Below are positions 3,446-64,000 of a DNA stretch of 64,000 nt, one piece after another (position 1 is the stretch's first letter; each line of letters begins with the position of its first letter). Origin of the DNA: Patescibacteria group bacterium. GTDB taxonomy: Bacteria > Patescibacteriota > JABMPQ01 > JAQVVF01. The translations under genes and the position numbers were made by a program. The DNA lies in contig JBAZSC010000003.1 of assembly GCA_041662665.1 (NCBI GenBank), positions 143,115 through 207,114 on the forward strand. The letters run 5' to 3'. The notes below the pieces were generated by a model. The model was not told where the DNA came from, made no database searches, and was given only the letters and a program-made list of their open reading frames with translations.

Positions 3446-4015
3446 ATGATGAAGAAGTTTGAGAGTTTTCTAAAAAATAAAAAAGCAAAATATAAGGTAG
3501 TTTCGCATCGCAAGGTTTATACTGCTTGGGATAGTTCAGCGACACAACATATCAATATTAAAACTGTTGCAAAGACATTATTAGTTAAAGCAGATAATGA
3601 TTATTTTTTTGTTGTTTTATCTGCGAATAAAAAATTGGATATAAATAAGCTGAAGAAAATTATTAATGTTTGGCGTGTGAAAGAGGCTAAAACTTTAGAC
3701 AATATAAGAACTGCAACCACTAAAGCATCCGCCTTCGCTAAAGCTTCGGCGGACAGGCAAAAATTATTAAAAGCACAGAAAATTAAAAAAATTTCATTGT
3801 GTTCTGAAAATATTGTTAAGAAAAAAATTGTTGGCAAAGAAGGAGCGATGGCGCCATTCGGCAGTTTTTATGGTTATAAAACTTTTGTTGATTCATTGTT
3901 GTTAAAACAAAAGAAAATTAATTTAAATGCTGGTAGTTTTACTGAATCTCTGGAAATGACTCCAGCGAATTATAAAAAAGTAGAAGAACCAATTGTTGGA
4001 AGTTTTGGAAAATAA
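3446..4015 (+). CDS. YbaK/ProX-type aminoacyl-tRNA deacylase-like protein carrying an in-frame palindromic-element insertion
   Basis: KTLLVKADNDYFFVVLSANKKLDINKLKK and GAMAPFGSFYG resemble the YbaK/ProX editing domain. A GC-rich repeat at 3727-3756 encodes KASAFAKASADRQ. Confidence 0.55.
   Translation: MMKKFESFLKNKKAKYKVVSHRKVYTAWDSSATQHINIKTVAKTLLVKADNDYFFVVLSANKKLDINKLKKIINVWRVKEAKTLDNIRTATTKASAFAKASADRQKLLKAQKIKKISLCSENIVKKKIVGKEGAMAPFGSFYGYKTFVDSLLLKQKKINLNAGSFTESLEMTPANYKKVEEPIVGSFGK
3727..3756. repeat. Palindromic element copy 1 (TCCGCCTTCG...CTTCGGCGGACA family), in-frame inside a CDS
   Basis: tccgccttcgctaaagcttcggcggaca. The outer inverted repeat tccgcc/ggcgga is read directly from the sequence. 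Confidence 0.8.
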
Positions 4016-7338: not shown

Positions 7339-7368
7339 AAAGTCCTGCAAGAAACAGGACTTTTTTAT
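7339..7368 (+). terminator. Rho-independent terminator
   Basis: gtcctg-caagaaa-caggac followed by TTTTTT. Confidence 0.75.
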
Positions 7369-7422: not shown

Positions 7423-8661
7423 ATGATATTTGCACATGCGCCCGCAGGATATTTGATATTAAGATTCACAGAAAAATTTTGGAATAAGAAAAAAATTTTC
7501 AAAAAGAAAAAAAGATTGGTTTTATATTTAATTGGAATCATATTTTCTATTTTTCCTGATTTTGATTTGTTTTACCATTATTTTTATTCTGCGAACACTC
7601 CACATCGTCAGTATATTTCGCATGGAATTATTGTTTATCTTGTTTTGTTTTTGTTGATTTACTTGATTGGATTATTAGCAAAAAAACAGTTTATTAAATC
7701 AATTGCTTGGGTGATTTTGCTTGGTGTTTCTACTCATTTATTTCTAGATACTATTGCGTCTGGAATTGCTATTTTTACTCCATTATCTTCTATGATGATT
7801 GGATTAAGATCAATCTGGTTTTTAAAATACAGTTTTTTTACAACAAATTTGTTTTTGATAAATTGTTCTTTAGAATTGTTAATTACTCTTTTTGCGATTG
7901 ATGTTTTTGTCCATGATTTTGTTAAAAATGCAAAATTAAAATTAGGAATTTTTATTGCAAGTATTATAATTTTTATTTCTGGATTTATCGGTTTAGCTTA
8001 TGTGAATGCGCATATTTATAATGGCGGACATTTTGATGCTTATTTTGAAGATAATGACCATGATGGAATTATAAATTTGGTTGATTTTGATATTGATGGT
8101 AATGGAATTTTAAATATTAATGATGCAGATGCTAATGGAAATGGCTTTTCTAATAAAGAAGATATTTTGAGCGCGACAAATTTGATGATTGGCAGATGGT
8201 ACGATTTTACAGAAGGAAGTTGGGGCGAGCTTTTTTCTAGATGGGGATTATTAACAAATTCTGATTTGATATCAAAAACATATGAAGCAGCTGGAATTTA
8301 TTTTCAAACAGAATTTGATAAAGATTACAAAAATAATCCAAATGACTATGTTGGCGTACCTGATGATCCATTGTTTGATCGAAGGACAGAAAATATTTAT
8401 GCATTTTGTAAACATAATGATCGATTGTTTGATGGTAAGAATTTGGAAGTTGGAGATATTGTATTTTTTAATCTACCTTCGTCTGCTGACTCCGGTGGAC
8501 AAGGTAATGGTTTGGCAGGATTAGTAACTTCATTTGATAAAAATAAGGAAACTGATATAATAATAGGGGAACCTGGTAAGATGATATATGAAGAAAATTT
8601 AAACGTTTTGAATGAAAAAATGAATGGCGTAAAAGCATATTGTCGCATAGTTAAAAATTAA
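7423..8661 (+). CDS. Polytopic membrane protein with Dx[DN]xDG calcium-binding-like repeats and a C-terminal soluble domain
   Basis: At least 5 hydrophobic helices in the first 190 aa. Repeats DNDHDGIINLVDFDIDGNGILNINDADANGNG follow, then a C-terminal domain of unknown function. Confidence 0.6.
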   Translation: MIFAHAPAGYLILRFTEKFWNKKKIFKKKKRLVLYLIGIIFSIFPDFDLFYHYFYSANTPHRQYISHGIIVYLVLFLLIYLIGLLAKKQFIKSIAWVILLGVSTHLFLDTIASGIAIFTPLSSMMIGLRSIWFLKYSFFTTNLFLINCSLELLITLFAIDVFVHDFVKNAKLKLGIFIASIIIFISGFIGLAYVNAHIYNGGHFDAYFEDNDHDGIINLVDFDIDGNGILNINDADANGNGFSNKEDILSATNLMIGRWYDFTEGSWGELFSRWGLLTNSDLISKTYEAAGIYFQTEFDKDYKNNPNDYVGVPDDPLFDRRTENIYAFCKHNDRLFDGKNLEVGDIVFFNLPSSADSGGQGNGLAGLVTSFDKNKETDIIIGEPGKMIYEENLNVLNEKMNGVKAYCRIVKN

Positions 8662-9212: not shown

Positions 9213-9281
9213 CGAGTAACTAGTAATAAGTAACTAGTAATTAGTAATAAATATGCCAGAATTTCAGAGGTTGAGATAATT

Positions 9282-9315
9282 ATCCGCCTTCGCTTTGCTA
9301 AGCTTCGGCGGACAA
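9282..9315. repeat. Palindromic element copy 2, intergenic (upstream of mutM)
   Basis: atccgccttcgctttgctaagcttcggcggacaa. Confidence 0.8.
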
Positions 9316-9339
9316 AGGACGACAGTATAATATAATTTT

Positions 9340-10158
9340 ATGCCTGAATTACCAGAAGTAGAAACGATTAAAAGACAGCTAGAAAATAAAATAATTGGCA
9401 AGAAGATTAAGGATGTTGAAGTTCGATATGCCAAGTTATTAAATTTGCCAGAAAAAGATTTTATTAAACAAGTTTCTGGAAGTAAAATTGTTGCTTTAAA
9501 AAGAAGAGCAAAACTTTTGATTTGGCAATTATCAAATGATAAAAATTTAGTTTTTCATTTGAAGATGGCTGGACAGGTTATTTGGGCAGGAAAAAATCCA
9601 GAATTAGCAAGATATACTTATGTTATTTTTACTTTGTCAGATTCTAATAAAGTATTTTTTAATGATAAAAGAAAATTTGGTTGGGTGAAATTTTTGAATA
9701 ATCAAGATTTAGAAAAATTATTATTGTCTTATGGTCATGAACCATTAGATAAAAATTTTACTTGGCAAGATTTGAAAGAAATTTTAAATAAGAAAAAAAG
9801 AATTAGAATAAAACCATTGTTAATGGATCAAACTTTATTGGCTGGAGTTGGCAATATTTATGCTCAAGAAGCTTGTTTTTGCGCAGGAATTTTGCCAGAG
9901 CGAAAAGCAGGCGATATAGTTGACGAAGATATTAAAAAGTTGTATGATTGCTTGAAAAAAGTTTTACTTGATTCTATCAAACATCATGGTACTTCAGCTG
10001 ATGCTTATGTAGATGCAATGGGCAATAAGGGCAGTTTTGAAGCAAGATTGAAAGTTTATGGACGTGAAGGCGAGAAATGTTATAGATGCGGTGGAATAGT
10101 AAAAAAGATGAGACTTGGGGGACGAGGAACTTATTTTTGTCCAAAATGCCAAGCGTAG
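9340..10158 (+). CDS. mutM: Formamidopyrimidine-DNA glycosylase (Fpg/MutM)
   Basis: The N-terminal MPELPEVE catalytic signature and a C-terminal zinc finger, CYRCGG...CPKCQ. Confidence 0.92.
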   Translation: MPELPEVETIKRQLENKIIGKKIKDVEVRYAKLLNLPEKDFIKQVSGSKIVALKRRAKLLIWQLSNDKNLVFHLKMAGQVIWAGKNPELARYTYVIFTLSDSNKVFFNDKRKFGWVKFLNNQDLEKLLLSYGHEPLDKNFTWQDLKEILNKKKRIRIKPLLMDQTLLAGVGNIYAQEACFCAGILPERKAGDIVDEDIKKLYDCLKKVLLDSIKHHGTSADAYVDAMGNKGSFEARLKVYGREGEKCYRCGGIVKKMRLGGRGTYFCPKCQA

Positions 10159-10179
10159 AGACGTAGCATTGCTACGTCT
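10159..10179 (+). terminator. Perfect 9-bp hairpin right after the mutM stop (weak T tract)
   Basis: agacgtagc-att-gctacgtct. The T-run lies only ~8 nt downstream. Confidence 0.4.
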
Positions 10180-10199
10180 GTACAAAGATTTTTAAAGTT

Positions 10200-10233
10200 A
10201 TCCGCCTTCGTCCTGTGGGACTTCGGCGGACAG
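10200..10233. repeat. Palindromic element copy 3, intergenic (downstream of mutM)
   Basis: atccgccttcgtcctgtgggacttcggcggacag, with inner hairpin gtcc-tgtg-ggac. Confidence 0.8.
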
Positions 10234-10296
10234 GTAAAGTTCATAAAGTATTTTTTTGGATATTGTTCTTTTGACAACGAGGAGAGGAGGAAAGAA

Positions 10297-11146: not shown

Positions 11147-11530
11147 CTAGGGTAGAGTGGAGCATAGGCCGTAAAGTTCGACGATGGCATCTTGGTTGTC
11201 TTTGGGTGGTTTGATGGAGATGAGTGAATCAGGAATGAGTCCTAGAATATGAAATTTGATTTTGATTTCAAGCGAAGGAGAAAAGGTTTTGGTAATTTCC
11301 GAAGTGCCTTTGGTAATGACAATACAAGGGTCTTTCATGGTTTTGAATAGATAGCTGATGCCGATAATAGTGGCATTCCAGGCGGGCATTTCTTTTTCTC
11401 CAACCTGAACAATTTCATCTCCGAAGAAATCTTCCTCGTCATAACTTGTGAGAAGAACAGGTTCTGCAAAAGCGGAGGAACAAACAGAGAAAATGCACAG
11501 GAAGCAAAGTGCAGAGATGGCCTTTTTCAT
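11147..11530 (-). CDS. Secreted hypothetical protein (signal peptide)
   Basis: GGAGG Shine-Dalgarno 6 nt before ATG 11530. N-terminus MKKAISALCFLCIFSVCSSAFA. Own terminator at 11110-11134. Confidence 0.6.
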   Translation of the reverse strand: MKKAISALCFLCIFSVCSSAFAEPVLLTSYDEEDFFGDEIVQVGEKEMPAWNATIIGISYLFKTMKDPCIVITKGTSEITKTFSPSLEIKIKFHILGLIPDSLISIKPPKDNQDAIVELYGLCSTLP

Positions 11531-11627
11531 TGTTGTCCTCCGTGGGTGAAAGCCGACCATATCATATCATATTGAATGAATTTGTCAAGTTTTTGACAGT
11601 TATTTTATATTATAGTAAACTTGGAAT

Positions 11628-19035: not shown

Positions 19036-19290
19036 ATGTATTATCTTTATATTTTAGAATGTGCTGACAAGACTTTGTACACTGGGATTGCAACAGATCT
19101 GAAGCGGAGATTGCTTGAACATAATAGTTCTAAGTTAGGGGCGAAATATACGTGTGCAAGGAGGCCCGTTAAGTTAGTTTATTCAAAAAAATTTAAAACT
19201 AGATCAAAGGCTTGTATTGAAGAGGCGAGGATTAAAAAGCTAAAAAAAATTGAAAAAATGGAATTGATTCATAGGGGTTCAATATATTGA
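19036..19290 (+). CDS. GIY-YIG nuclease superfamily protein (YhbQ/UPF0213-like)
   Basis: YYLYILECADKTLYTGIATDLKRRLLEHN...KYT...RPVKLVY. Confidence 0.75.
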   Translation: MYYLYILECADKTLYTGIATDLKRRLLEHNSSKLGAKYTCARRPVKLVYSKKFKTRSKACIEEARIKKLKKIEKMELIHRGSIY

Positions 19291-19342: not shown

Positions 19343-19380
19343 GTTCCGCCTTCGTCTCCTTTCGGGAGACTCCGGCGGAT
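19343..19380. repeat. Palindromic element copy 4, abutting the tRNA-Gln 5' end
   Basis: gttccgccttcgtctcctttcgggagactccggcggat, with inner hairpin gtctcc-tttcg-ggagac. Confidence 0.75.
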
Positions 19381-19385
19381 TGCGA

Positions 19386-19456
19386 TCCGGGATCGTCTAA
19401 TGGTAGGACAACAGGTTCTGGACCTGTTTATCTTGGTTCGAATCCAGGTCCCGGAG
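19386..19456 (+). tRNA. tRNA-Gln (anticodon CTG)
   Basis: Manual fold: acceptor tccggga/tcccgga, D-stem gtct/ggac with a GG loop, anticodon stem acagg/cctgt with loop ttCTGga, T-arm cttgg-TTCGAAT-ccagg, discriminator G. No CCA is encoded. Confidence 0.85.
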
Positions 19457-20985: not shown

Positions 20986-22266
20986 GTGGAACAAAGAGAC
21001 AGAGATCTTGTTAAAGCGATGGTCAATGCTTATTTGGATAAGATGAGGGCCGGGTCGGATCCAGCGTGGACTGGCAGAAAGGAAAAGAATGCTTTGCATG
21101 ATGCTTTGTATATTGATGGTGTTCCGATTGTCTATGATGAAAAAAATTCTGCTCAATCATTGTTTAGCCAACTTGTTAGATTCAAAAAGGATAGTTTTGA
21201 TTGTTATCCTCGCGATATGGTTTACCATTTTTTGTACATGTTGGAATATCTGCAGATTTTGGAAGAGGATGGAATTAATGGATTGAATAAGAGGATTGCG
21301 ATTCTTGTTGATCAGTTGAGGACAATGAATCGTGATGATTATGATGGTATTCGTCATATTTGTAGACTTTTGGATAATTTGTTACAGACTGTGATTTATT
21401 TTTGTCCGCATCTGGTCTTTGGAGTGGAGTTGAAATTGAAGTCAGGCAGTGTCATGGATGATGAAGCTTTTGGTAATCTTTATGGCTATGAACATAATCG
21501 ATGGCCATATGAGAAAATGATGGAAATGCAAGGATTTAATCCTAATGATTCTCGAAGATTGCGAATGGTTGTTAATTTGCCATATAGTTTTACGACAGGT
21601 ACTCATGGTTCTGGCGAAAGAGCTGCTGTTGGATCATCGCGAGTACCGATTTGTTTTGGTACTTTGATGTATCGAGAAAGAATTCAGAAAAATGGTTCAG
21701 TACCTTGCGTCAAGATTTCAGTGAAACGACCTTTGTTGTCTGAGGATTATACGGCATTTGCAATTGACGAAGTAGAAAGTGTTCGACTTGTTCCAGAATG
21801 TGATTATATTCCATATTATTCTGATTTTGCTGATCATCCAGAAAAAGAAAAGCTGATTTCAAGAATGAAGCCAGAAGATTATTATCTGATTTTCAGAGAT
21901 TTTAGTAATTACGTTAATTTCAGGAGAGATAATGTTCCTAGTTCTTATGATCTATTGGAGCGAGCGGCATTTTTGGCAGGTTTCTGCGAGCCAAGCTATT
22001 TTTGTCGATTAACTGAATTAGATTATGATAGAAAATCTTTTCAACTCGGTTTCATTTGGGAAGTAGATATTCCAAGCCATAAGCCTCAAGTCTATGAATT
22101 TTGGGATATTGAAAAGCCTGATGACGATACTCATGTGGCATTGGGCATGGTCTATGTTGCAATCAAATCACTTGATCAAGAAGTTATGAAGAAGGTGTGT
22201 GTTCACGAAGGCATTGATATTATTCGAAGATTAATGCAAATTCCTGTTCATGATCGACATTTCTAG
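20986..22266 (+). CDS. Hypothetical protein (GTG start, strong Shine-Dalgarno, GC-richer than neighbours)
   Basis: 426 aa ORF. AAGGAGGG lies 7 nt before GTG 20986. No recognisable domain. Confidence 0.6.
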   Translation: MEQRDRDLVKAMVNAYLDKMRAGSDPAWTGRKEKNALHDALYIDGVPIVYDEKNSAQSLFSQLVRFKKDSFDCYPRDMVYHFLYMLEYLQILEEDGINGLNKRIAILVDQLRTMNRDDYDGIRHICRLLDNLLQTVIYFCPHLVFGVELKLKSGSVMDDEAFGNLYGYEHNRWPYEKMMEMQGFNPNDSRRLRMVVNLPYSFTTGTHGSGERAAVGSSRVPICFGTLMYRERIQKNGSVPCVKISVKRPLLSEDYTAFAIDEVESVRLVPECDYIPYYSDFADHPEKEKLISRMKPEDYYLIFRDFSNYVNFRRDNVPSSYDLLERAAFLAGFCEPSYFCRLTELDYDRKSFQLGFIWEVDIPSHKPQVYEFWDIEKPDDDTHVALGMVYVAIKSLDQEVMKKVCVHEGIDIIRRLMQIPVHDRHF

Positions 22267-28466: not shown

Positions 28467-28500
28467 ATCCGCCTTCGTCCTGCGGGACTTCGGCGGACAA
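28467..28500. repeat. Palindromic element copy 5, intergenic, immediately 5' of the 28510 start codon
   Basis: catccgccttcgtcctgcgggacttcggcggacaa. The inner hairpin is the same as in the nrdG copy. Confidence 0.8.
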
Positions 28501-28509
28501 GGAAAAATT

Positions 28510-28974: not shown

Positions 28975-29010
28975 AAACAGCCTCAAAATTTTTAGGCTGT
29001 TTTTGTTTTG
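28975..29010 (+). terminator. Rho-independent terminator
   Basis: cagcct-caaaattttt-aggctg followed by a T-run. Confidence 0.7.
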
Positions 29011-29887: not shown

Positions 29888-29966
29888 ATCTGCCTTCGTC
29901 CCTCGCTTTGCGAAGATGAGGGACTTCCTCCTTCGCTACGTTACGGAGGACAAGTCGGCGGACAAA
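29888..29966. repeat. Palindromic element copy 6, composite/nested double element
   Basis: atctgccttcg-gtccctc...gagggac-ttcc-tcctccttcg...ggagga-caagtcggcggacaaag. Two nested hairpins lie inside the family termini. Confidence 0.7.
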
Positions 29967-29969
29967 GAA

Positions 29970-30005
29970 AAACAGCCTTGAAATTCAGGGCTGTTTTATT
30001 TTGAA
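29970..30005 (+). terminator. Rho-independent terminator
   Basis: aacagcctt-gaaattc-agggctgtt (one G-U pair) followed by ttttatttt. Confidence 0.65.
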
Positions 30006-35773: not shown

Positions 35774-36298
35774 ATGAAAAAGTATTTCATAATGCCAAGT
35801 GAAAAGATAGTCAGTAAAATATATATTATACGCAATAAAAAAGTGATGCTTGATCGTGATTTGGCATTGCTTTATGGCGTGACGACAAAGGTACTAAATC
35901 AAGCTGTTAGACGAAATATTAAACGGTTTCCAGCTGATTTTATGTTTAGATTGGAAAAACTGGAATTTGAAAATTGGAAGTCACAAATTGTGACTTCCAA
36001 TTCTGATAAAATGGGATTAAGAAAATTACCTTTTGCTTTTACTGAACAAGGTGTGGCAATGTTAGCAAGTGTTTTAAAAAGTGATCGAGCAATTCAGGTA
36101 AATATTCAAATTGTTAGAACTTTTATTAAATTGAGAGAACTATTGGCAACAAATGAAGAATTGCAATCTAAGTTAATGAGATTAGAACAGCGTTATGATA
36201 AAAAATTAAAAGAAGTTTTTAATATATTAAGATTATTATTGACAGAAAAAGAAAAACCAAAAGATGAATTGGGGTTTAAATATAAAAGAATAAAATAA
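35774..36298 (+). CDS. ORF6N-domain protein
   Basis: The N-terminal IYIIRNKKVMLDRDLALLYGVTTKVLNQAVRRNIKRFPADFMFRL...SQIVTS...LPFAFTEQGVAMLASVL matches the ORF6N fold. It contains a perfect 27-bp palindrome. Confidence 0.7.
   Translation: MKKYFIMPSEKIVSKIYIIRNKKVMLDRDLALLYGVTTKVLNQAVRRNIKRFPADFMFRLEKLEFENWKSQIVTSNSDKMGLRKLPFAFTEQGVAMLASVLKSDRAIQVNIQIVRTFIKLRELLATNEELQSKLMRLEQRYDKKLKEVFNILRLLLTEKEKPKDELGFKYKRIK
35974..36000. repeat. Perfect 27-bp palindrome TTGGAAGTCACAAATTGTGACTTCCAA inside the ORF6N coding sequence
   Basis: 13-1-13 perfect inverted repeat, sharing the core TCACAAATTGTGA with the upstream site. Encodes NWKSQIVTSN. Confidence 0.8.
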
Positions 36299-44936: not shown

Positions 44937-44970
44937 ATCCGCCTTCGTCTTGCGAGACTATGGCGGATAA
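44937..44970. repeat. Palindromic element copy 7, in the long nrdD leader region
   Basis: atccgccttcgtcttgcgagactatggcggataaag, with inner hairpin gtct-tgcg-agac. Confidence 0.75.
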
Positions 44971-45084
44971 AGTTAGTTTAATTTTTTATAGTCAGTCTAA
45001 TATAATAAAGTGCTTTAAAGTTTGCTTTTAAAAATTTATATATTAAAAATAATAAATATTTTCTATTAAAAATAAAATTAAAAT

Positions 45085-46977
45085 ATGAAGGATCAAAACA
45101 AACAAACAAAAAAGGAGAGAAAAGAAGTAAATGTTGATGTTCTGTCAACCATAGATGAATATTTAGGAAAGATGGATTGGCGAGTTTCAGCAAATGCAAA
45201 CCAAGGCTATTCTTTAGGCGGTATGATTTTGAATACTGCTGGAAAAGTAGTAGCTAATTATTGGTTGCACAAAATTTATCCAAAGGAAGTTGGAGAAGCG
45301 CATATCCATGGTGATTATCATATTCATGATTTGGATATGTTTTCAGGCTATTGCGCTGGTTGGAGCATTAGGCAACTTCTTGAAGAAGGATTTAATGGTG
45401 TTTCTGGTAAGGTTGAATCTGGTCCAGCAAAACATTTAGAAACAGCTTTGGGTCAAATGGTAAATTTTTTAGGAACATTACAAAATGAATGGGCAGGCGC
45501 TCAAGCATTTTCATCTTTTGACACATATTTAGCGCCATTTGTTAAAGTTGATAAATTAAGTTATGAAAGAGTTTTTCAATGCATTCAGCAATTTGTTTTT
45601 AATTTAAATGTTCCATCAAGATGGGGAACACAGACGCCATTTACAAATGTTACTTTAGATTGGGTTTGTCCAGAAGATATGAAAGATCGAAAACCAGTAA
45701 TTGGTGGAAAAGTCGTTGATTTTACTTATGGAGATTGCCAAAAAGAAATGGATTTAGTCAATAAAGCTTTTATTGAAACAATGATTACTGGAGATAATAA
45801 AAGCAGAATTTTTACTTTTCCAATTCCAACTTATAATATTACAAAAGATTTTGATTGGGAAAATGAAAATGTAAAATTATTATTTGAAATGACTGCTAAA
45901 TATGGCACTCCTTATTTTCAAAATTTTTTGAATTCAAGTTTAAAACCATCTGATGTCAGAAGCATGTGCTGTAGATTGCAATTAGATTTGCGTGAATTGA
46001 AAGCAAAAGGCGGAGGTTTGTTTGGTTCAGCAGAAATGACTGGCAGTATTGGTGTTGTAACTATTAATTTGGCAAGAATTGGTTATCTAGCTAAAACAAA
46101 AGAAGAATTTTTACAACGATTAGCAAGATTAATGGATCTTGCAAAGACTTCTTTAGATATGAAAAGAAAAGTAATTGAGGAAAACATGGAAAAAGGATTG
46201 TTGCCATATACAAAACGCTATCTTGGATCTTTGCATAATCATTTTTCAACAATTGGCATTAACGGATCTAATGAAGCCTGTTTGAATTTTTTAAAAAAAG
46301 ATATTTCTCATCCAGAAGCGAAGAAATTCATTGTTGAAGTTTTGGATTTTATGAGAAAAAAATTAGCTGACTATCAAGAAGAGACAAACAATTTTTATAA
46401 TTTGGAGGCAACTCCGGCAGAAGGAACGACTTATAGGTTTGCAAAAGAAGATCAGAAAAGATATCCAGATATTATTCAAGCTGGAACAAAAGATGCGCCA
46501 TATTATACAAACTCAACTCATTTGCCAGTTGGTTATACTGATAATCCAATGGAAGCTTTGGATCATCAAGATGATTTGCAGACTAAATATACAGGCGGAA
46601 CAGTATTGCATTTATTTTTGGGCGAAAGGATTATGAATTGGAAAGTTTGTCGAGATTTAGTAAAAAGAGTAGCTGAAAATTACAGATTGCCATATTTTAC
46701 GATGACTCCGACATTTAGCATTTGTCCAACGCATGGCTATTTGAATGGCGAGCAAAAGAATTGCCCAATTTGTGAAAAAGAATGCGAAGTTTGGTCAAGA
46801 GTAATGGGATATTTTAGACCTGTTTCACAATGGAATAAAGGCAAGCAAAGTGAATATAAAGAACGCAAAGAATATGAAATTAAGAATTTAAAATATGAAA
46901 ATAGCAGGATTTCAGAAATTAAGCCTATTGGAATATCCAGACCGGATTTGCGCAATAGTGTTTCTGCAAGGATGTAA
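45085..46977 (+). CDS. nrdD: Anaerobic ribonucleoside-triphosphate reductase (class III)
   Basis: C-terminal Zn/Gly-radical region CPTHGYLNGEQKNCPICEK...RVMGYFRPVSQWNKGKQSE and a central RNR fold. Confidence 0.9.
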   Translation: MKDQNKQTKKERKEVNVDVLSTIDEYLGKMDWRVSANANQGYSLGGMILNTAGKVVANYWLHKIYPKEVGEAHIHGDYHIHDLDMFSGYCAGWSIRQLLEEGFNGVSGKVESGPAKHLETALGQMVNFLGTLQNEWAGAQAFSSFDTYLAPFVKVDKLSYERVFQCIQQFVFNLNVPSRWGTQTPFTNVTLDWVCPEDMKDRKPVIGGKVVDFTYGDCQKEMDLVNKAFIETMITGDNKSRIFTFPIPTYNITKDFDWENENVKLLFEMTAKYGTPYFQNFLNSSLKPSDVRSMCCRLQLDLRELKAKGGGLFGSAEMTGSIGVVTINLARIGYLAKTKEEFLQRLARLMDLAKTSLDMKRKVIEENMEKGLLPYTKRYLGSLHNHFSTIGINGSNEACLNFLKKDISHPEAKKFIVEVLDFMRKKLADYQEETNNFYNLEATPAEGTTYRFAKEDQKRYPDIIQAGTKDAPYYTNSTHLPVGYTDNPMEALDHQDDLQTKYTGGTVLHLFLGERIMNWKVCRDLVKRVAENYRLPYFTMTPTFSICPTHGYLNGEQKNCPICEKECEVWSRVMGYFRPVSQWNKGKQSEYKERKEYEIKNLKYENSRISEIKPIGISRPDLRNSVSARM

Positions 46978-47617
46978 TTTTAAGTGTCCTTTTTGCCATA
47001 ATCCAGAATTGGTATATAACGATCCGCCTACGTCCTGCGGGACTTTGGCGGACAAAGTAACCGAGGAAGAGGTCTTCGGTTATTTGGTTAAGAAGAAAAA
47101 AATGCTAGATGGAGTTTGTATCACAGGAGGCGAGCCAACTTTGCATGCTGATTTGATTGATTTTATTGTAAAGCTTAAAAAGATTGGATATTTGGTTAAG
47201 CTGGATACAAATGGATCAAACCCTAAAATGTTGAAAGAACTTTTTGACAAAAAATTACTTGATTATGTGGCTATGGATTTAAAAGCACCATTTGAAAGAT
47301 ATTCGGAAATTGTGGGTTTAGGGCATAGGGCACAGGGCTTGGGTATTATTGAAAATTGTAAAAAGTCTTTTAAATTAATCCAGGAATCTTCCGTTGATCA
47401 TGAATTTAGGACGACTGTTTTTCCGCAAGAACATATAGAAAATGATTTTATGAAAATGGCAGGATATCTGAAAAAAGGCGAGAAATATTATTTGCAAAAT
47501 ATTAGATACATTAAAAATTTAGATCAAAATTTGGATCAAAGTAAAAAAATAGATATTGCTATGCTTTTGAATAAATTAAAGAGTAAATTTCCTGATATTT
47601 GTGTTGAAGAAAGATAA
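46895..47617 (+). CDS. nrdG: Anaerobic ribonucleotide reductase activating protein (radical SAM) with an in-frame palindromic-element insertion
   Basis: GCNFKCPFCHNPEL, then the insertion-encoded DPPTSCGTLADK, then ITGGEPTL. Overlaps the nrdD 3' end by 83 nt. Confidence 0.8.
   Translation: MKIAGFQKLSLLEYPDRICAIVFLQGCNFKCPFCHNPELVYNDPPTSCGTLADKVTEEEVFGYLVKKKKMLDGVCITGGEPTLHADLIDFIVKLKKIGYLVKLDTNGSNPKMLKELFDKKLLDYVAMDLKAPFERYSEIVGLGHRAQGLGIIENCKKSFKLIQESSVDHEFRTTVFPQEHIENDFMKMAGYLKKGEKYYLQNIRYIKNLDQNLDQSKKIDIAMLLNKLKSKFPDICVEER
47011..47046. repeat. Palindromic element copy 8, in-frame inside nrdG
   Basis: atccgcctacgtcctgcgggactttggcggacaaag, which encodes DPPTSCGTLADK. Confidence 0.8.
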
Positions 47618-55368: not shown

Positions 55369-56082
55369 ATGAAAAAAATATTTAAAACATATAAAAAATT
55401 TGAGAAAGCTAATTTGTTGCAATTAAGTTCCTTTTTTCTTGGTTTTGCAGTTGGCAAAAATAAAGATAAGAAAATACGACCTTTTTTTAAAAATGCTTAC
55501 ATTGTTATAAAGGAAAATAAAGGAATATTATATTGGCGAAAAGAAAATTTTGAGAAAGCCATTTTGGTATTGAATAATCTGATCGAGAAGAAGCCAAAAT
55601 ATAATTCTGAATTATTGAAAAAAATTGAAAAAAAAGCGAAGGAAATTAAAAGGATAACAGCAAAAATTGCCAAGATGAAATTAAATAAAAAGAGTAATCA
55701 AGAGATAGCTAAATTTGTGCAGGTGCTATATAATATCAAAGTTGAATGGGCAGATTTGTTGTTTATCCCTAATATCTTAGTTATGGAACAAAAGCCAAGT
55801 AAATTTGAAATTTTGGCAATTGAGATTGAAAATAGAATTAATATATTAATGGATTCGATAATCAAGGAAATATCTAGAAGAACTTTTTATTCTGTAAGTC
55901 AATTATATTTTGCTTTGCCAATTGAGATAAAAGATATTATAAATAAAAAGGGATTAAAAAGATATGAATTGGATAACAGAAGCAAATTATGTTTAATTGA
56001 AGTGAACAGGAATGGCAAGCTAAAAGTAATTTCTGGAATTGAAGCTAAAAATATTATTAAAAAATACAAAACAATTTTATAA
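55369..56082 (+). CDS. Hypothetical protein
   Basis: 237 aa ORF, K-rich. No recognisable domain. Confidence 0.45.
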   Translation: MKKIFKTYKKFEKANLLQLSSFFLGFAVGKNKDKKIRPFFKNAYIVIKENKGILYWRKENFEKAILVLNNLIEKKPKYNSELLKKIEKKAKEIKRITAKIAKMKLNKKSNQEIAKFVQVLYNIKVEWADLLFIPNILVMEQKPSKFEILAIEIENRINILMDSIIKEISRRTFYSVSQLYFALPIEIKDIINKKGLKRYELDNRSKLCLIEVNRNGKLKVISGIEAKNIIKKYKTIL

Positions 56083-56128
56083 AAAATTTATGAACAATGA
56101 AATTGTTCAATGTTAAGTTATTATATTT

Positions 56129-58323
<2,195 letters not shown>

Positions 58324-58355
58324 GCGAATCAAAAGTTTAAAATCTAAAGTCAAAA

Positions 58356-58383
58356 ATAAAACCTCGACGAGAGGTTTTTTGTT
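58356..58383. terminator. Bidirectional terminator between the convergent ahcY and rhodanese genes
   Basis: aaacctc-gacga-gaggttt, with an A-run on one side and T6 on the other. Confidence 0.7.
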
Positions 58384-58400
58384 TATAATTTTTAAATATT

Positions 58401-59207
58401 TTATTCGATTGGGTAATTTTTGTTTTGCCAATCTAGGTAACCGTTGATGAGATTAATTGCTTGCGTAAAACCTTTTTTAGTTAGACTTTCGACAATCAAT
58501 TTGCTTCTATTTCCTGTTTCATCATAAACAATTAATTCTTTGTTTCTAGGCAATTCTTTTATTCTGTTAGCTACTTCTTCGAATGGCATATTAATTGCAT
58601 TTTTGATATGTGATTTGTCAAAACTATCTTTTTCTCTGATATCTAAAATAACGATATCCTCGTTATTATCAATTTTTTGTTTTAATTGATCTAAATTAAT
58701 GCTTTTATAAATTGCATCGAATCCAGAAATTATTGGATAATTTTGTTCTTCCCAACCTGTTACTCCTTCCTTGAAACTTTTAACATTTTTTAATCCTTTT
58801 GACGATAGTAGCTCAGCGGCTTTCGTTGAAGTTTTGCAGGTATTATCATTAGTACAAGTTGTAATTATTTCTTTATTATTTGGAATTTCTTTTATTCTTG
58901 CTTCGACTTGCTCATATGGAATATTTATTGAACCAGGAATATGCTTGGTTAAATAATTTTGTTCACTTTGAACGTCTAAAATATAAATGTTTTCTTGATT
59001 GTCAATTTTTTCTTTTAATTCTGAAGCAGTAATTGTTGGTATTGTAGATTGTGATTCGTTCAAATTTGTTTGGCTATTTTTGACTGGCTTGATATTTAAT
59101 TTCCATTGAGGTTTAACAAAAATAGCAATAATGCCGCCAACTACGATAATTACTGCGAAAATTAACATGATCGTTTCTTTTTTGCTTGCTTTATATGGTT
59201 CTGACAT
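58401..59207 (-). CDS. Membrane-anchored tandem rhodanese-domain protein
   Basis: N-terminal TM then two rhodanese-like modules (ILDVQSEQNYLTKHIPGSINIP; ILDIREKDSFDKSHIKNAINMP). Confidence 0.7.
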   Translation of the reverse strand: MSEPYKASKKETIMLIFAVIIVVGGIIAIFVKPQWKLNIKPVKNSQTNLNESQSTIPTITASELKEKIDNQENIYILDVQSEQNYLTKHIPGSINIPYEQVEARIKEIPNNKEIITTCTNDNTCKTSTKAAELLSSKGLKNVKSFKEGVTGWEEQNYPIISGFDAIYKSINLDQLKQKIDNNEDIVILDIREKDSFDKSHIKNAINMPFEEVANRIKELPRNKELIVYDETGNRSKLIVESLTKKGFTQAINLINGYLDWQNKNYPIE

Positions 59208-59215
59208 TTTATTTT

Positions 59216-60154
59216 TTATATAGCGATTTTATTTATAATATTTTTATTTCCTCGTAAATAATCTGAAGTTGCGATTTCTTTTTTTCCTTCTGGTTGCCAT
59301 TTATCTATAACAAGAATGTTTTTAAAACAGGCAACAGCGATTTTATTCTCATGAATAAATATTGTGCCATTTTGTTTTTTTGTATCTTGATTGATTATAC
59401 TTGCTTTTGTTATTTTGAAACGTTTTTTGTCGATAAAAGTATAGGCTGAAGGCCAAGGATAGAAAGCATTAATTTGTTGTAAAATATTTTTGGCATTTTG
59501 TTGCCAATCAATTTTTCCATCTTCTTTTTTGATGATTCTTGTGTAAGTTGCTTGATTATTATCTTGAGGCTTGGGAGTAATTTTTTTATTAATATAATCA
59601 GGCAATATTTTTAGGAGAAATTCAGCACCGATTTTTGATAAACGATTATGCAATGTTTCTGAGGTATCATCATTATATATTTTTTCAGTTTTTTGTGCAA
59701 TTATGTCGCCTTCATCCATTTTTTCGTTCATAACCATAATTGTGATGCCTGTTTCTTTTTCTCCATTTAGAATTGCAGTTTGAATTGGAGATGCACCGCG
59801 ATATTTTGGTAATAAAGAGGCATGAATATTAATACAACCATATTTTGGTAAATTTAAAATGTCTTTTGGAATAATTTTTCCGTAGGCTGCAACAATAATA
59901 ACATCAGGATTAAGATCTTTAATTTGATTTATGAATTCTATATTTTCTTTTATTTTTTGAGGTTGAAGAACTTTAATATTATTTTTAATTGCAATCTGTT
60001 TGACTGGTGAGGGTAAAAATATTTGTTTTCTGCCAACTTTTTTGTCTGGCTGAGTTACAACTGCAATTAAGTTTGTTCCTTTTATTAGAGAATTCAAAGT
60101 TGGGACAGCAAAATCAGGTGTACCAAAAAAAATTGTTTTTATATTTTTTAACAT
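59216..60154 (-). CDS. fmt: Methionyl-tRNA formyltransferase
   Basis: IFFGTPDFAVPTLNSLI...VVTQPDKKVGRK, and a formyltransferase fold. Confidence 0.88.
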   Translation of the reverse strand: MLKNIKTIFFGTPDFAVPTLNSLIKGTNLIAVVTQPDKKVGRKQIFLPSPVKQIAIKNNIKVLQPQKIKENIEFINQIKDLNPDVIIVAAYGKIIPKDILNLPKYGCINIHASLLPKYRGASPIQTAILNGEKETGITIMVMNEKMDEGDIIAQKTEKIYNDDTSETLHNRLSKIGAEFLLKILPDYINKKITPKPQDNNQATYTRIIKKEDGKIDWQQNAKNILQQINAFYPWPSAYTFIDKKRFKITKASIINQDTKKQNGTIFIHENKIAVACFKNILVIDKWQPEGKKEIATSDYLRGNKNIINKIAI

Positions 60155-60586
60155 TTATTTGATAATTTTATCTATAAATAGAATGCCGTCGAGATGATCA
60201 ATTTCATGCTGAAGTACACGAGCATAAAGTCCTTTGGCAGTGATTTTGTTTTTATTTCCATTTTCATCTTGGAATTTGACTGTAACTTTGTAGGCTCTTT
60301 TTACTTTGCCAAAAATTTTAGGTAAAGATAAACAACCTTCTTCAGCAATTTCTTTTTTTAAAGATTTAGAAGTTATTTTTGGATTAATAAATATTTTTGG
60401 TCCATCTTTAGTTTGAATAGCAATTAATTTTATTGATTTTCCAATTTGTGGAGCGGCTAAGCCAATACCATCATGATCAAGCATAGTTTTAACAAATTCA
60501 GGAACCATTTTTTGAATATCAGAAAAATTCTCAATTGTTTGAGTTTTCATTCTAAGGATTTCATTTGGATAAGTAATAATCTTCAT
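60155..60586 (-). CDS. def: Peptide deformylase
   Basis: GIGLAAPQIG, EGCLS, HEIDHLDG. Confidence 0.9.
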   Translation of the reverse strand: MKIITYPNEILRMKTQTIENFSDIQKMVPEFVKTMLDHDGIGLAAPQIGKSIKLIAIQTKDGPKIFINPKITSKSLKKEIAEEGCLSLPKIFGKVKRAYKVTVKFQDENGNKNKITAKGLYARVLQHEIDHLDGILFIDKIIK

Positions 60587-60639
60587 GTAACACTCTAATT
60601 TATTTTCTAATATTTGCGAATGAGTTTTCGAATACTGTC

Positions 60640-62610
60640 TTAAAGTAAGCTCTCTGGATCGATATCAACAATCCAATCATTAGGAACTTGTTTTAAGATA
60701 TAATCTTTAAATTTTAGATCTTTAAGTTTAATTATAATTTGCCAGATGTATCGGCCTTGAATTTTTGTAAAAAACGATGGGGCAGGACCTAAAATAGTTA
60801 AAAGTTTAAAGTCTAAAGTTAAAAGTTTTCGAAGCTTGTTTGCCAAATTCGCTGATTCGTGTTGGGCTTGGTCTGGATCGGAATTTTTATAGATTAACTT
60901 GATGACTTTAACGAATGGAGGATAATCAAGATCTCGACGAGTTTTAATTTCATTTTTGTAGAAACTTTCAAAATCATGATTGGACGCAGTTTTAATAACA
61001 AAGCTATCTGGCTTATATGTTTGAAAAATTACTTTGCCAGGAGTAATACCTCTACCAGTTCTTCCAGCAATTTGTGTAAGAAGTTGAAAGGTTCTTTCTT
61101 GCGCTTTGTAATCTGGTAGATTCAAACCAACATCTGAAGAAATAACGCCCACAAGATCGACTCCCTCAAGATCCCAGCCCTTGGCAATCATTTGCGTACC
61201 GATCAAGATATTGGCTTTTTTTAGCCTAAAATCATTGTAAATTTGGGCATGCGAGTGCTTGGTGCGAGTAGTATCTGAATCCATCCTGAATATTCTAACA
61301 TATTTATACATTTTTTGCAACTCCTGTTCAACTTTTTCTGTTCCAGTGCCAAAATATTTTATAGCTGAACTTTTGCATCTTGGACAGGAAATCGGTGTGG
61401 GAGTTGTGTAGCCACAGTAATGACAGCTTAAATTATTTTGTTTATAGAGATGAAAAGTAAGAGGAACATCGCAATTTTTGCAAGTCGCAACATAACCGCA
61501 ATCTCGACAATTTACAAATGTGGCGATGCCTCTTCTATTTATATATAGCAGAGCTTGGCGATTATTTTTTATAATAGTTTCTAGCTCTTTTTGCAAACTT
61601 TCGGAAAAAATTGAGAAATTCCTCTTTTTGAATTCTTCTCGCATATCAACAATTTCTACTTTTGGCATTATTGAGTTTGCGGTGAATCTTGAAGGCAATT
61701 TTAGTAGTGAATAAATATTTTGTTCAGCCATATAATATGATTCGATACTTGGAGTAGCTGATCCAAGGACAACTTTTGTGTTAAATATGTTGGCTAATTT
61801 TATAGCTGCTTCTCTTGCATGGTAACGAGGATTTTGATCATATTGTTTATATGATGAATCATGCTCTTCATCAATAATGATAATGCCTAAATTTTGAATG
61901 GGAGCAAAGATTGCTGATCTTGGTCCAATAATTATTTTTGCTTTATTTGATTTTATTTTTTTCCATTGAGTAAATTTTTCTCCAGTTGATAATTTGGAAT
62001 GTAAAATTGCAATTTGTTCTTGATTAAAATGTTGGGAGAATCGATTGATTGTTTGTGGAGTTAAAGAAATTTCTGGAACTAAGACAATTGATTGTTTATC
62101 TAATTTTATTTGCTGTTCAATTAATTTTAAATAAATTTCTGTTTTGCCTGAACCAGTTACTCCATGAATAAGAAAAACTTTAAAATCTTTTGTTGAATTT
62201 ATTTTTTCAAATATTATTTGTTGTTGTTTTGTGAGTTTTGGATAGGCGATAGTATCTGATTTTACATCTTTTTCTTTTGTTCTTTGATTAACAGCTTGTG
62301 GCAACATTAGCTTTATGACAGAAGCAACAGATGTGTGGTAATATTCTGAAATCCATTTTGCAAGTTCTATCTGCTTGTTCGTTAAATTAATATTTTCTAC
62401 TTGTTTAATGATCTCTTTAGGTTTAAAACCAAGCTCTTGAACATTATTATTGTTCAGTGAATAAACGATACCTTTTATTGTTTTTCCACGAAAAGGAATC
62501 TCAACAACTTGACCTAGCGATATATTTTCTTTTGATAAATAAGAAAAAACCTGATTTTTGTCAGGAGGTAATTTAATTGATGGAATAATATTATATAAAT
62601 TAAATGACAT
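60640..62610 (-). CDS. priA: Primosomal protein N' (PriA helicase)
   Basis: Walker A GVTGSGKTE, DEEHD, Cys-rich zinc-binding insert CRDCGY...CKNCD...CHYCGY...CPRC. Confidence 0.88.
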   Translation of the reverse strand: MSFNLYNIIPSIKLPPDKNQVFSYLSKENISLGQVVEIPFRGKTIKGIVYSLNNNNVQELGFKPKEIIKQVENINLTNKQIELAKWISEYYHTSVASVIKLMLPQAVNQRTKEKDVKSDTIAYPKLTKQQQIIFEKINSTKDFKVFLIHGVTGSGKTEIYLKLIEQQIKLDKQSIVLVPEISLTPQTINRFSQHFNQEQIAILHSKLSTGEKFTQWKKIKSNKAKIIIGPRSAIFAPIQNLGIIIIDEEHDSSYKQYDQNPRYHAREAAIKLANIFNTKVVLGSATPSIESYYMAEQNIYSLLKLPSRFTANSIMPKVEIVDMREEFKKRNFSIFSESLQKELETIIKNNRQALLYINRRGIATFVNCRDCGYVATCKNCDVPLTFHLYKQNNLSCHYCGYTTPTPISCPRCKSSAIKYFGTGTEKVEQELQKMYKYVRIFRMDSDTTRTKHSHAQIYNDFRLKKANILIGTQMIAKGWDLEGVDLVGVISSDVGLNLPDYKAQERTFQLLTQIAGRTGRGITPGKVIFQTYKPDSFVIKTASNHDFESFYKNEIKTRRDLDYPPFVKVIKLIYKNSDPDQAQHESANLANKLRKLLTLDFKLLTILGPAPSFFTKIQGRYIWQIIIKLKDLKFKDYILKQVPNDWIVDIDPESLL

Positions 62611-63636
62611 TATTTTGTAAAGTAATTAATGACTTTTTCTTTTCTGTTTTCATTTCTAAGATAATAAGGAAGCAACCTATATAAAAGCGATATCATTGGT
62701 TTTATTTTATACAGACTGATAAATTTTTCACAGAATTTTTTTTGTTCTAAGAGTCTGTTAAATTTTTCACTATATTTATAATTTGGATCAATAATTTTTT
62801 TTGCTGCTTCTTGACCAGATAGGAGAGCGCCAAAGATTCCTTCACCTGTTAATCCATTAGTGAATCCGCCTGCTTCACCGATAAGAAAAAAGTTATTAAA
62901 TTTCATTCCTCGATAATCATAATTAATTGGAAATGACTCAATATTTTTTTCTGTAATGCCATTTTTGTTTAGCCATTCAAAAAAATTGTTTCTTAATTTT
63001 GAAATTGAAAAATATTTTTGATCTGTTGCTGTTCCAAAACGAGTGTGATTTTGGTGTGGAAAGATCCAAGCATAGTGAGGACCAAATAGTTTTGTGTCAA
63101 TTTTGATTTCAAAATCTTTGAACAATTTATTTGTTCGGACTTGCATCGTAGTCGCTAATTTGGTAGTTGGTATCTTTAGGAACTTTCGAACTAGAGAGTT
63201 TGCTCCATCTGCGCCAATTAAATATTTAAATTGATAACTTTCTTTCTCAGTATTTAGAGAGTTTTTTTGAATAGAAATAACTTTTGTGCTAGTTAGAATA
63301 GTTGCTCCGGATTTTTTTGCTTGTTCTGCTAGATAGGATCCTAGTTTTTCACGTTCAACAGTATAGAGATAAGGTTCGTTTTGATTTAAATTGATTATTT
63401 TTCTGTAAACAATAATTTTTGCTGAATTGAAACTTTTATCACAAATTGATATTGGAATGTTAAAATAGTTTATATCTTTTTGTGTTAAACCGCCAGCACA
63501 AATTTTTTTGCCAAATTCTGAATTTTTTTCTAATACTAATACTTTCTTGTTTTGTTTTGCAAGAGTTTTGGCTGCTGATAATCCGGCAGGGCCAGCACCA
63601 ATTATTATTGTTTCATAAAATTTATTTTGATTCATA
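62610..63636 (-). CDS. FAD-dependent oxidoreductase (geranylgeranyl reductase-like)
   Basis: N-terminal dinucleotide-binding IIIGAGPAGLSAAKTLAK. Start placed at ATG 63636; the track ORF extends to TTG 63701 through a duplicated segment. Confidence 0.65.
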
Positions 63637-63783
63637 ACTTTGGAAAAATATTGCTTTTTAAAAGTTTGCAGAAAATTGGTACGGGGCAAGCCTCGCACCA
63701 ATTATTATTGTTTCAAAGTATTGCATTTGCTTTAAGTCTAGCATTTTTTTGAAAATCTTCAAATATTTTGCTATACTAAAGTT

Positions 63784-64000
63784 ATGAAAAAGAAGCGCAT
63801 ATTTATTTCATTAAATGTTTCTCTCAGTATAAAAAGAAAAATTGCAAAAGTGCAAAAGAATTTTGCTGATTTTAATGGTGTAAGATGGGAACCTCGAAAA
63901 AAGTTACATATTACATTGCATTTTCTGAACTATTTAGACAATAATGAAATTGAAAAAGTTAAAAGTGTCTTGTCAAAGATTAAATTGAAAATCTTTATAG
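63784..64000 (+). CDS. thpR: RNA 2',3'-cyclic phosphodiesterase (2'-5' RNA ligase LigT/ThpR family), N-terminal part (3' end lies outside the window)
   Basis: RIFISL...GVRWEPRKKLHITLHFL contains the first HxTL motif. Confidence 0.6.
   Translation, partial: MKKKRIFISLNVSLSIKRKIAKVQKNFADFNGVRWEPRKKLHITLHFLNYLDNNEIEKVKSVLSKIKLKIFI

Follow-up and report, generated by a model that had tools for sequence, protein, structure and literature searches.

In a 64,000-nucleotide stretch of DNA from a Patescibacteria group bacterium (assembly GCA_041662665.1, contig JBAZSC010000003.1, positions 143,115 to 207,114 of the forward strand; hereafter the window), we find a family of short, GC-rich hairpin repeats, hereafter units. 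Units have recently been gained and lost in this Patescibacteria lineage. They insert as whole, discrete units without target duplication, also into one another and into coding sequences when the reading frame survives. We consider, with moderate confidence, that they are non-autonomous, single-stranded DNA (ssDNA) hairpin repeats of about 29-35 nt, of the class of repetitive extragenic palindromic (REP) sequences, and that they are probably partnered with an Ssn-like GIY-YIG nuclease. By sequence, they are a new variant outside the published GTAG, CGTC and SRM definitions, and the kind of system to which they seem to belong is already known.

Pattern search, half-site search and a covariance model run without filters place ten units in the window, at nine loci and without exception on the + strand. 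The pattern TCCGCC-N(10-40)-GGCGGA has seven exact matches in the window, every one on the + strand, against 0.01 expected from shuffled sequences. The unfiltered covariance-model run over the window gave exactly nine + strand matches, and the - strand gave weak palindromic echoes alone. The layout of a unit is (A)TCCGCC, TTC, G-inner hairpin-C, TTC and GGCGGA, followed by CAAG, CAGG or CAAA. These parts form a 6-bp outer stem (GC-rich consensus NCCNCC/GGNGGN'), an inner hairpin that varies freely and, between the two, a symmetric 3x3 internal loop of conserved pyrimidines (TTC/TTC). The CAAG-like 3' tail is unpaired and gives the unit its direction. The GC content of the units is 44-65%, compared with about 31% (29-34%) for the window. 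Folded as ssDNA, they form a two-tier hairpin of -8 to -11 kcal/mol with z-scores of -2.5 to -4.1 in seven of nine cases; the weakest folders are the short copy at 3728 and the diverged copy at 8472.

The original prediction had described a dispersed palindrome family of eight copies. The family is real, and the anatomy described for it was read at all eight intervals. A ninth, diverged copy at 8472-8503 and a nested unit had been missed, and the last copy, given as 47011-47046, lies at 47023-47056. The interval 29888-29966 stands as a locus, and what was counted there as a single copy is two units, with a 29-nt unit at 29926-29954 nested in the other. The units are as follows.

Unit 1: 3728..3757, + strand; TCCGCC TTCG CTAAAG CTTC GGCGGA CAGG; 53.6 bits.
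Unit 2, diverged: 8472..8503, + strand; TCTACC...GGTGGA CAAG, with one T.G wobble and an A-T compensatory pair in the stem; 17.5 bits.
Unit 3, intergenic: 9283..9316, + strand; 70 nt past the stop of a CBS-domain gene and 24 nt ahead of the fpg start.
Unit 4, intergenic: 10201..10234, + strand; 42 nt past the fpg stop.
Unit 5: 19345..19379, + strand; inner stem of 6 bp, no CAAG tail; 54 nt past the stop of a GIY-YIG gene and 6 nt ahead of tRNA-Gln.
Unit 6, intergenic: 28468..28501, + strand; 22 nt past the stop of a MacB-type permease gene, with a tail reading AAGGA 8 nt ahead of the next ATG.
Unit 7, the outer unit: 29889..29967, + strand; TCTGCC...GGCGGA CAAAG, split at 29925/29926 by unit 8; 9 nt past the stop of a Band_7 gene and just ahead of a canonical terminator (29972-29994 plus T-run).
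Unit 8, nested: 29926..29954, + strand; 29 nt, TCCTCC/GGAGGA subtype with a CAAG tail; 22.4 bits.
Unit 9, intergenic: 44938..44971, + strand; upstream of nrdD.
Unit 10: 47023..47056, + strand; inside the open reading frame (ORF) of nrdG, the radical SAM activase gene (46895-47617).

Six of the nine loci are intergenic and lie 9-230 nt past stop codons between co-directional genes. The gene content of the window is that of ordinary housekeeping genes, mostly on the + strand.

Recent gain and loss is seen by comparison with a relative that has a near-complete genome (GCA_964574655.1, 654-kb contig), which is syntenic with the window at about 82% nucleotide identity. The MacB permease homologues are too conserved to single out a close relative, and the comparison of filled and empty sites excludes 19345, 28468 and 29889. 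The original prediction had proposed a search for orthologous loci that lack the element, and such empty sites were found. The relative has no unit at five window sites (3728, 8472, 9283, 10201 and 44938), and the covariance model detected no unit anywhere in its 20-kb stretch L123, which matches window positions 1-14 kb. Compared with L123, the window carries a clean, in-frame insertion of 30+3 nt at the 8472 site. The unit at 3728 sits in a lineage-specific 28-aa insertion of YbaK that is missing from all YbaK homologues (161-169 aa, versus 189 aa in the window). At the 9283 site, the relative has a different hairpin, AGACGCCCAAATTGGGCGTCT, and the 44938 site is empty in its stretch L168. 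Conversely, the relative carries units at L168 13098, past a BON-domain gene, and at L168 17259, and the window has none at either site. The nrdG site is occupied in both the window and L168, with a TCCGCC/GGCGGA stem in the former and a TCCTCC/GGAGGA stem in the latter, which differ by a compensatory double change from G-C to T-A. A third genome (L169) has an uninterrupted nrdG and an empty site.

The nested pair delimits the inserted unit. Unit 8 sits in the 3' internal loop of unit 7, and its removal restores a perfect right arm, GGGACTTCGGCGGACAAAG. From this nested copy, the mobile unit is the hairpin plus its CAAG tail, with a duplication of at most 1 nt. No target duplication longer than 1 nt is present at the nested insertion or at the 8472 site. 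We rejected a model in which the target supplies the left arm, the right arm of the unit pairing with a pre-existing TCCNCC, because the left arm is absent at the empty 8472 and nested sites.

The spacer between the CBS-domain gene and fpg, which holds unit 3, shows further small repeats. A tandem repeat of GTAACTAGTAAT(A/T)A, in about 2.5 copies at 9226-9258, is lacking in the relative. A second small hairpin motif, AGACG-N(5-9)-CGTCTGTACA(A), lies past fpg in the window (10159-10181); in the relative, it lies in the CBS-fpg spacer (L123 16509-16536). Beside unit 3, at 9317-9327, only the 3' half of an AGACG-type hairpin (GGACGACAGTA) is left, as if unit 3 had landed in or replaced such a hairpin.

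Three of the nine loci lie in coding sequences, and the reading frame is kept in each. The original prediction had correctly placed copies in frame inside genes; it counted two, and the diverged ninth copy adds the third. Unit 1 is read as SAFAKASADR inside the YbaK/tRNA_edit ORF (3446-4015), unit 2 as LPSSADSGGQ inside a YdjM-like ORF (7423-8661), and unit 10 as PPTSCGTLADK in NrdG, just past the CxxxCxxC motif. One consensus unit translates without a stop in all six frames. Some variants do contain stop codons, as in unit 1, where the CTAAAG inner hairpin gives TAA in one sense frame. The nrdG ORF and the end of nrdD (45085-46977) share 83 nt, and public nrdG gene calls, in 219-aa and 202-aa versions, begin downstream of the CxxxCxxC motif. 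These short calls were apparently misled by the nrdD overlap together with the inserted unit.

The family is not specific to this lineage. Scanning one genome per species with the pattern TCCGCCTTCG-N(4-30)-CTTCGGCGGA matched at least 120 loci; by our own estimate, a few tens of chance matches to this pattern are expected in 596 Gb. The matches listed come from Patescibacteria (Saccharibacteria, Doudna-, Andersen-, Roizman- and Torokbacteria), Acidobacteriota, Bacteroidota, Planctomycetota, Verrucomicrobiota, Omnitrophota, Armatimonadota, Elusimicrobia, Alphaproteobacteria (Bradyrhizobium and others) and further groups, and among them the core with a CAAG-like tail recurs in more than 10 phyla. 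The flanks outside the search pattern are nevertheless conserved, with C at +1 in 89 of 119 loci and AAG at +2 to +4 in 55-66 of 119, and so is an inner GC-YAAR-GC in these 119 loci, which the pattern did not specify. The commonest inner hairpin across phyla is GCCAAGGC. A metagenome scan with the lineage-specific inner hairpin CCTTCGTCYTGYGRGACTTCGG gave seven loci, mostly from the same organism or by chance in GC-rich DNA.

A covariance model built from real sequences identified 248 distinct units in 1.4 Mb of fetched loci, many of which hold 2-8 units. The enrichment, for which the original prediction had proposed a wider scan, thus extends beyond the window. Across the 248, the pair that closes the outer stem alternates between U-A, C-G and A-U with 36 double changes against 4 unpaired cases, and an inner pair changes from C-G to U-A in 29 double changes. 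Paired cells make up 99%, versus 30-50% in slid controls, in an alignment that was itself fitted to the covariance model. At the level of these aligned sequences, the stems are shown to be kept by compensatory change, which bears out the earlier claim that structure is conserved over sequence. Across phyla, units are arranged as singletons, tandem copies and tail-to-tail inverted dimers, and inverted dimers in the fetched loci are tail-to-tail by 19:1. The tail-to-tail dimers of Acidobacteriota overlap via GGCGGACCGCC (L013, L033, L036, L046, L072, L078, L089 and L091). The window contains no REPIN-like inverted doublets, solely co-oriented singletons and the one nested pair.

Units also occur in DNA classed as viral. 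The GC-rich contig IMGVR_UViG_3300045935_000065 (45.5 kb; L129 and L160) carries at least eight, and other viral contigs carry 3-5 (L134, L152 and L154). Phage or prophage DNA is thus also populated by the family and could be a route between phyla.

The family did not match known collections. Rfam returned only tRNA-Gln and noise, both for the whole window at the gathering threshold and for 9240-10260 at E<=10. A full-text literature search for the DNA motif and the encoded peptides gave nothing relevant, and neither PMC3733652 nor PMC6006769 lists the motif in its supplementary REP tables.

The candidate partner of the units emerged from their neighbours. We compared all ORFs within 2.5 kb of a unit by all-against-all BLAST, and scanned with Pfam the 252 ORFs of 70-330 aa within 250 nt of a unit. 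In both screens, the sole recurrent family other than housekeeping genes was a small single-domain GIY-YIG nuclease. The window has one such gene, and a tRNA gene follows unit 5 on its far side.

GIY-YIG gene: 19036..19290, + strand; small single-domain nuclease of 84 aa, UPF0213-like; PF01541 at 5.7e-16.
tRNA-Gln(CTG): 19386..19456, + strand; directly 3' of unit 5.

The closest solved relatives of the 19036-19290 protein are UPF0213 structures (PDB 1YWL, 1e-15; PDB 1ZG2, 2.5e-13), and NCBIfam gave no match for it. Five small GIY-YIG genes are present in the 1.4 Mb, and a sixth, in a viral contig (L177), was found independently via the protein. All six have a unit at a distance of 42-792 nt (Fisher combined p = 0.0012 under random placement). 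The five proteins from outside the window share the motif FEKYLKSGSG; they and the window protein all match PF01541 and are mutually homologous. In searches for the FEKYLKSGSG type, plasmids gave none and viral contigs one locus only. We regard the 19036-19290 gene as a candidate trans-acting partner, or at least as a co-localised gene. Pfam annotation of the window ORFs revealed no transposase, and the ORFs between paired or flanking copies are ordinary genes alone. In particular, no REP-associated tyrosine transposase (RAYT, PF01797-type) was found in the window, and none recurs among the 252 unit-adjacent ORFs.

The units are also associated with genes for tRNA and transfer-messenger RNA (tmRNA). 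In the fetched loci, 14 units lie within 60 nt of such a gene, about 8-fold more than the 1.75 expected. For one tmRNA, one tRNA-Arg and the tRNA-Ser of three Patescibacteria lineages, the 3' end of the RNA gene itself (acceptor positions 70-72, discriminator base and CC) is also the left arm of the unit. Four of the six GIY-YIG loci have a tRNA or tmRNA first, followed by the unit and then GIY-YIG; in the window, GIY-YIG comes first, followed by the unit and then tRNA-Gln.

Two observations on individual tRNA genes may be added. A near-identical junction of tRNA-Ser and unit is found in two metagenome-assembled genomes, one from Saccharibacteria (L024 7760-7882) and one from Andersenbacteria (L079 1546-1666). 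It includes the inner hairpin CCCGCCGTAGCGGG and the downstream sequence CAAAGTCCGCTT(T)AGAAGACC, and in L079 the GIY-YIG gene comes next. This junction suggests either that a tRNA-Ser-unit-GIY-YIG cassette was transferred or that the binning is in error. A Patescibacteria tRNA-Glu (L173 1188-1258) begins GCCGCCTTCGTCTAGTGG...AGGAC, so that its positions 2-13 and 22-25 equal the left arm and inner stem of a unit (CCGCCTTCGTCY...GGAC). This match may be a coincidence.

The orientation of the units in this lineage points to a single-strand process. All ten window units and all three units of the relative are on the + strand. GC skew is strongly positive throughout the window and stays positive over a block of minus-strand genes (58401-63701). 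It is therefore replication-linked, with the whole window on one replichore. Within 56001-64000, the GC skew is 0.20 and then 0.09, and the AT skew turns negative over the minus-strand block. Since the + strand is the G-rich leading-strand sequence, the strand carrying the hairpin and tail would correspond to the lagging-strand template. The lagging-strand template is also where single-strand elements of the IS200/IS605 type act. We propose that a trans-acting nuclease would recognise the unit as folded ssDNA. The likeliest partner would be a small GIY-YIG nuclease with a single domain, of the Ssn/UPF0213 kind, such as the product of the 19036-19290 gene. On the model of SsnA, the enzyme would bind the hairpin on one strand and cut ssDNA nearby. 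The hairpin-plus-tail strand would be transiently single-stranded at the replication fork, and its orientation fits such a mechanism. Units past stop codons may have a secondary role as RNA 3' hairpins, which is unneeded to explain the units.

The link to small GIY-YIG and tRNA genes, which like the cross-phylum conservation of the core had not been foreseen, makes the Ssn/SRM systems the nearest comparison in place of RAYT-type REPs. Short palindromic repeats from eight phyla have been sorted into GTAG- and CGTC-tagged superfamilies; intragenic copies were noted, and no transposase was found for the CGTC class (Di Nocera et al. 2013, PMC3733652). A catalogue covers the REPs flanking Y1-HUH genes (Quentin et al. 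2018, PMC6006769). The Ssn family, single-domain GIY-YIG proteins of about 94 aa (cd10448), targets repeats of the CGTC type, known as dRS3/NTS in Neisseria and in generalised form as SRM (Chenal et al. 2025, PMC11893778). Ssn proteins were shown experimentally to attach to one strand of the hairpin and to cut ssDNA upstream of it in a strand-specific manner, and their genes are usually flanked by the repeats (PMC11893778). Like the Ssn/SRM repeats, which are 20-50 nt long, the units are directional hairpins with a conserved unpaired flank, are found in hundreds of copies and many phyla, lie near single-domain GIY-YIG genes of about 80-95 aa without a transposase, and are occasionally intragenic. 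Unlike them, the units have no 5' CGTC tag, no AT-starting stem of 8-9 bp and no CCA-like tail; their conserved unpaired flank is on the 3' side (CAAG), and their stem is two-tiered with a TTC/TTC loop. Insertions in coding sequences (three of nine loci here) also contrast with the roughly 2% reported for NTS. In their logic, the units would work like an Ssn/SRM or a REP system, and they are not a demonstrated member of either.

Several observations weigh against a partnership with an Ssn-like nuclease acting on one strand. The SRM consensus HGTCWYN(0-2)YYVSBRHN(0-5)WNVSBRGN(0-2)RNCYNB has no match in the window on either strand, and consensus units fail this motif on both strands in a test that the NTS control passes. 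The GIY-YIG gene of the window differs from ssn genes in having no unit upstream, the one beside it being 54 nt downstream, and by PDB similarity its product is UPF0213-like, not demonstrably of the Ssn clade cd10448. The GIY-YIG link consists of six loci, none of them with units demonstrated on both sides of the gene; four also have a tRNA or tmRNA gene, and a common preference for tRNA-adjacent DNA could produce the proximity. Across phyla, orientation has only a weak link to GC skew (61:48 overall, 23:9 in low-GC loci) and none to gene direction (16 sense versus 18 antisense in coding sequences), and wobble pairs have no strand preference (T.G 5 versus A.C/C.A 10).

The likeness to other mobile repeats is partial in each case. 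The high copy number of these imperfect palindromes (10 units in 64 kb) and their mainly extragenic positions are those of REPs. As in the GTAG REPs and REPINs of E. coli and Pseudomonas, a tag, an outer stem, mismatched nucleotides and an inner GC stem are present. Singletons, tandem clusters and inverted dimers, mostly extragenic and downstream of genes, occur in both, as do compensatory stem change and the lack of target duplication. The foot of the units is CAAG, CAGG or CGAG (CTTG on the other strand), not GTAG or GTGG; no RAYT is seen nearby, the core is cross-phylum and not species-specific, and the window singletons are co-oriented. With Rickettsia palindromic elements (RPEs), they share a palindromic structure in a small AT-rich genome and in-frame positions in genes, where they add short peptides. 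RPE-1 type elements are 100-150 bp and reside in another phylum, and the short RPE-4 and RPE-6 belong to the CGTC class (PMC3733652), whose pattern the units do not fit; in sequence, the units and the RPEs seem unrelated. The subterminal hairpins of IS200/IS605 insertion sequences (IS) and of their miniature derivatives, the palindrome-associated transposable elements (PATEs), are likewise imperfect, cause no duplication and are oriented to the lagging-strand template, and recognition on one strand would be common to both. The units are a single hairpin of about 30 nt, not paired left and right ends, and no TnpA or TnpB is associated. The original prediction had called the family RPE- and REP-like, which agrees with the presence and absence between relatives, the nesting, the compensatory stems and the abundance past the window. 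It had also likened the family to Correia-type elements, and this likeness to miniature inverted-repeat transposable elements was not upheld: the whole unit is one hairpin, with no IS terminal inverted repeats beyond it and no target-site duplication.

An unlikely alternative is that the units are a classical REP/REPIN family mobilised by a RAYT, an HUH Y1 tyrosine transposase (TnpA_REP), encoded elsewhere in the genome. The architecture is that of E. coli-type (GTAG-3) REPs, in which a 4-nt unpaired tag is followed by an outer stem, 2-3 non-complementary nucleotides and an inner GC stem (PMC3733652), and the inverted dimers in other phyla have a fixed geometry. Single-strand HUH chemistry would fit the strand bias and the lack of target duplication, and class 3 Y1 proteins with atypical hairpins are known from Acidobacteria, Planctomycetes and Proteobacteria (PMC6006769). 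However, the CAAG tag (CTTG on the other strand) is neither GTAG/GTGG nor the class 3 CnGA foot, and the motif is missing from the REP tables of both surveys. Furthermore, the neighbour screens described above contain no Y1 or other transposase in the window, between flanking copies or recurrently among the 252 adjacent ORFs, and RAYT-linked REPs are reported to be species-specific, whereas this core is common to many phyla. We consider it very unlikely that the units act mainly at the RNA level, for instance as terminators, processing sites or stabilisers of mRNA 3' ends, having arisen or persisted through selection on transcripts and not through DNA mobility. The sense orientation of all units in this lineage, the position of six loci shortly past stop codons between co-directional genes, the T.G (G.U-compatible) pairs of two window copies and the AAGGA tail of unit 6 are in line with such a role, and REPs are known mRNA stabilisers (PMC3733652). 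On the other hand, three units lie inside coding sequences and one inside another unit, and orthologous sites are empty in relatives. No T-run follows any unit, the tails being CAAG or A-rich, so they lack the mark of an intrinsic terminator, and separate canonical terminators with hairpin and T-run are present at 7342-7360, 28977-29000 and 29972-29994, the last directly after unit 7. No Rfam family matches the units. A general sense-RNA function is not supported, since antisense is as frequent as sense outside this lineage and the mismatches have no strand preference, with no excess of G.U over A.C.

It also seems highly improbable that the units are tRNA-derived elements, descended from tRNA 3' ends or trailers or mimicking an acceptor stem plus D-arm, that were spread by a tRNA-linked route. 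The RNA gene 3' ends that serve as left arms, the excess of units near tRNA and tmRNA genes and the tRNA-Glu match all speak for such an origin, but most units are far from any tRNA, and at the 8472 and nested sites the unit brings its left arm along instead of taking it from the target. In addition, the commonest cross-phylum inner hairpin is not D-arm-like, and the tRNA-Glu match is a single, after-the-fact observation. We therefore retain the reading of the units as ssDNA hairpin repeats that are probably partnered with a GIY-YIG nuclease. A wider proposal, which we put forward only tentatively, is that they form a previously unrecognised, cross-phylum class of nuclease-partnered hairpins, apart from GTAG, CGTC and SRM, with small GIY-YIG proteins as cognates. 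Such a class may have been seeded at, or targeted to, tRNA 3' ends, where the left arm mimics or is the tRNA or tmRNA 3' end, and may then have colonised intergenic DNA and, in streamlined Patescibacteria, coding genes.

A few other features of the window stand apart from the units. An ORF6N-domain protein (KilA-N-like, phage antirepressor-type) is encoded at 35774-36298 among housekeeping genes, and the KilA-N gene of the relative is at a different place (L168 3575-4402). Two ORFs have no Pfam match, at 20986-22266 (426 aa) and at 11147-11560 on the - strand (137 aa).

For a long time, short hairpin repeats were regarded as species-specific and as bound up with RAYTs, until the Ssn study of 2025 revealed a second class that has tiny GIY-YIG ssDNA nucleases as partners and no transposase. 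The family described here would add a third sequence class, uncaptured by published search motifs, in Patescibacteria, Acidobacteriota, Alphaproteobacteria, Bacteroidota, the PVC phyla and others. The units offer strain-level markers, and errors of gene callers follow from them, for example the truncated start of nrdG. If the GIY-YIG link holds, the family would provide new pairs of enzyme and sequence for site-specific ssDNA cutting, and the overlap with tRNA 3' ends is a testable idea on the origin of such repeats. In the minimal genome of a member of the candidate phyla radiation (CPR), the repeats remodel proteins, with an 11-aa segment by the radical-SAM cluster of NrdG and further insertions in YbaK and the YdjM-like protein.

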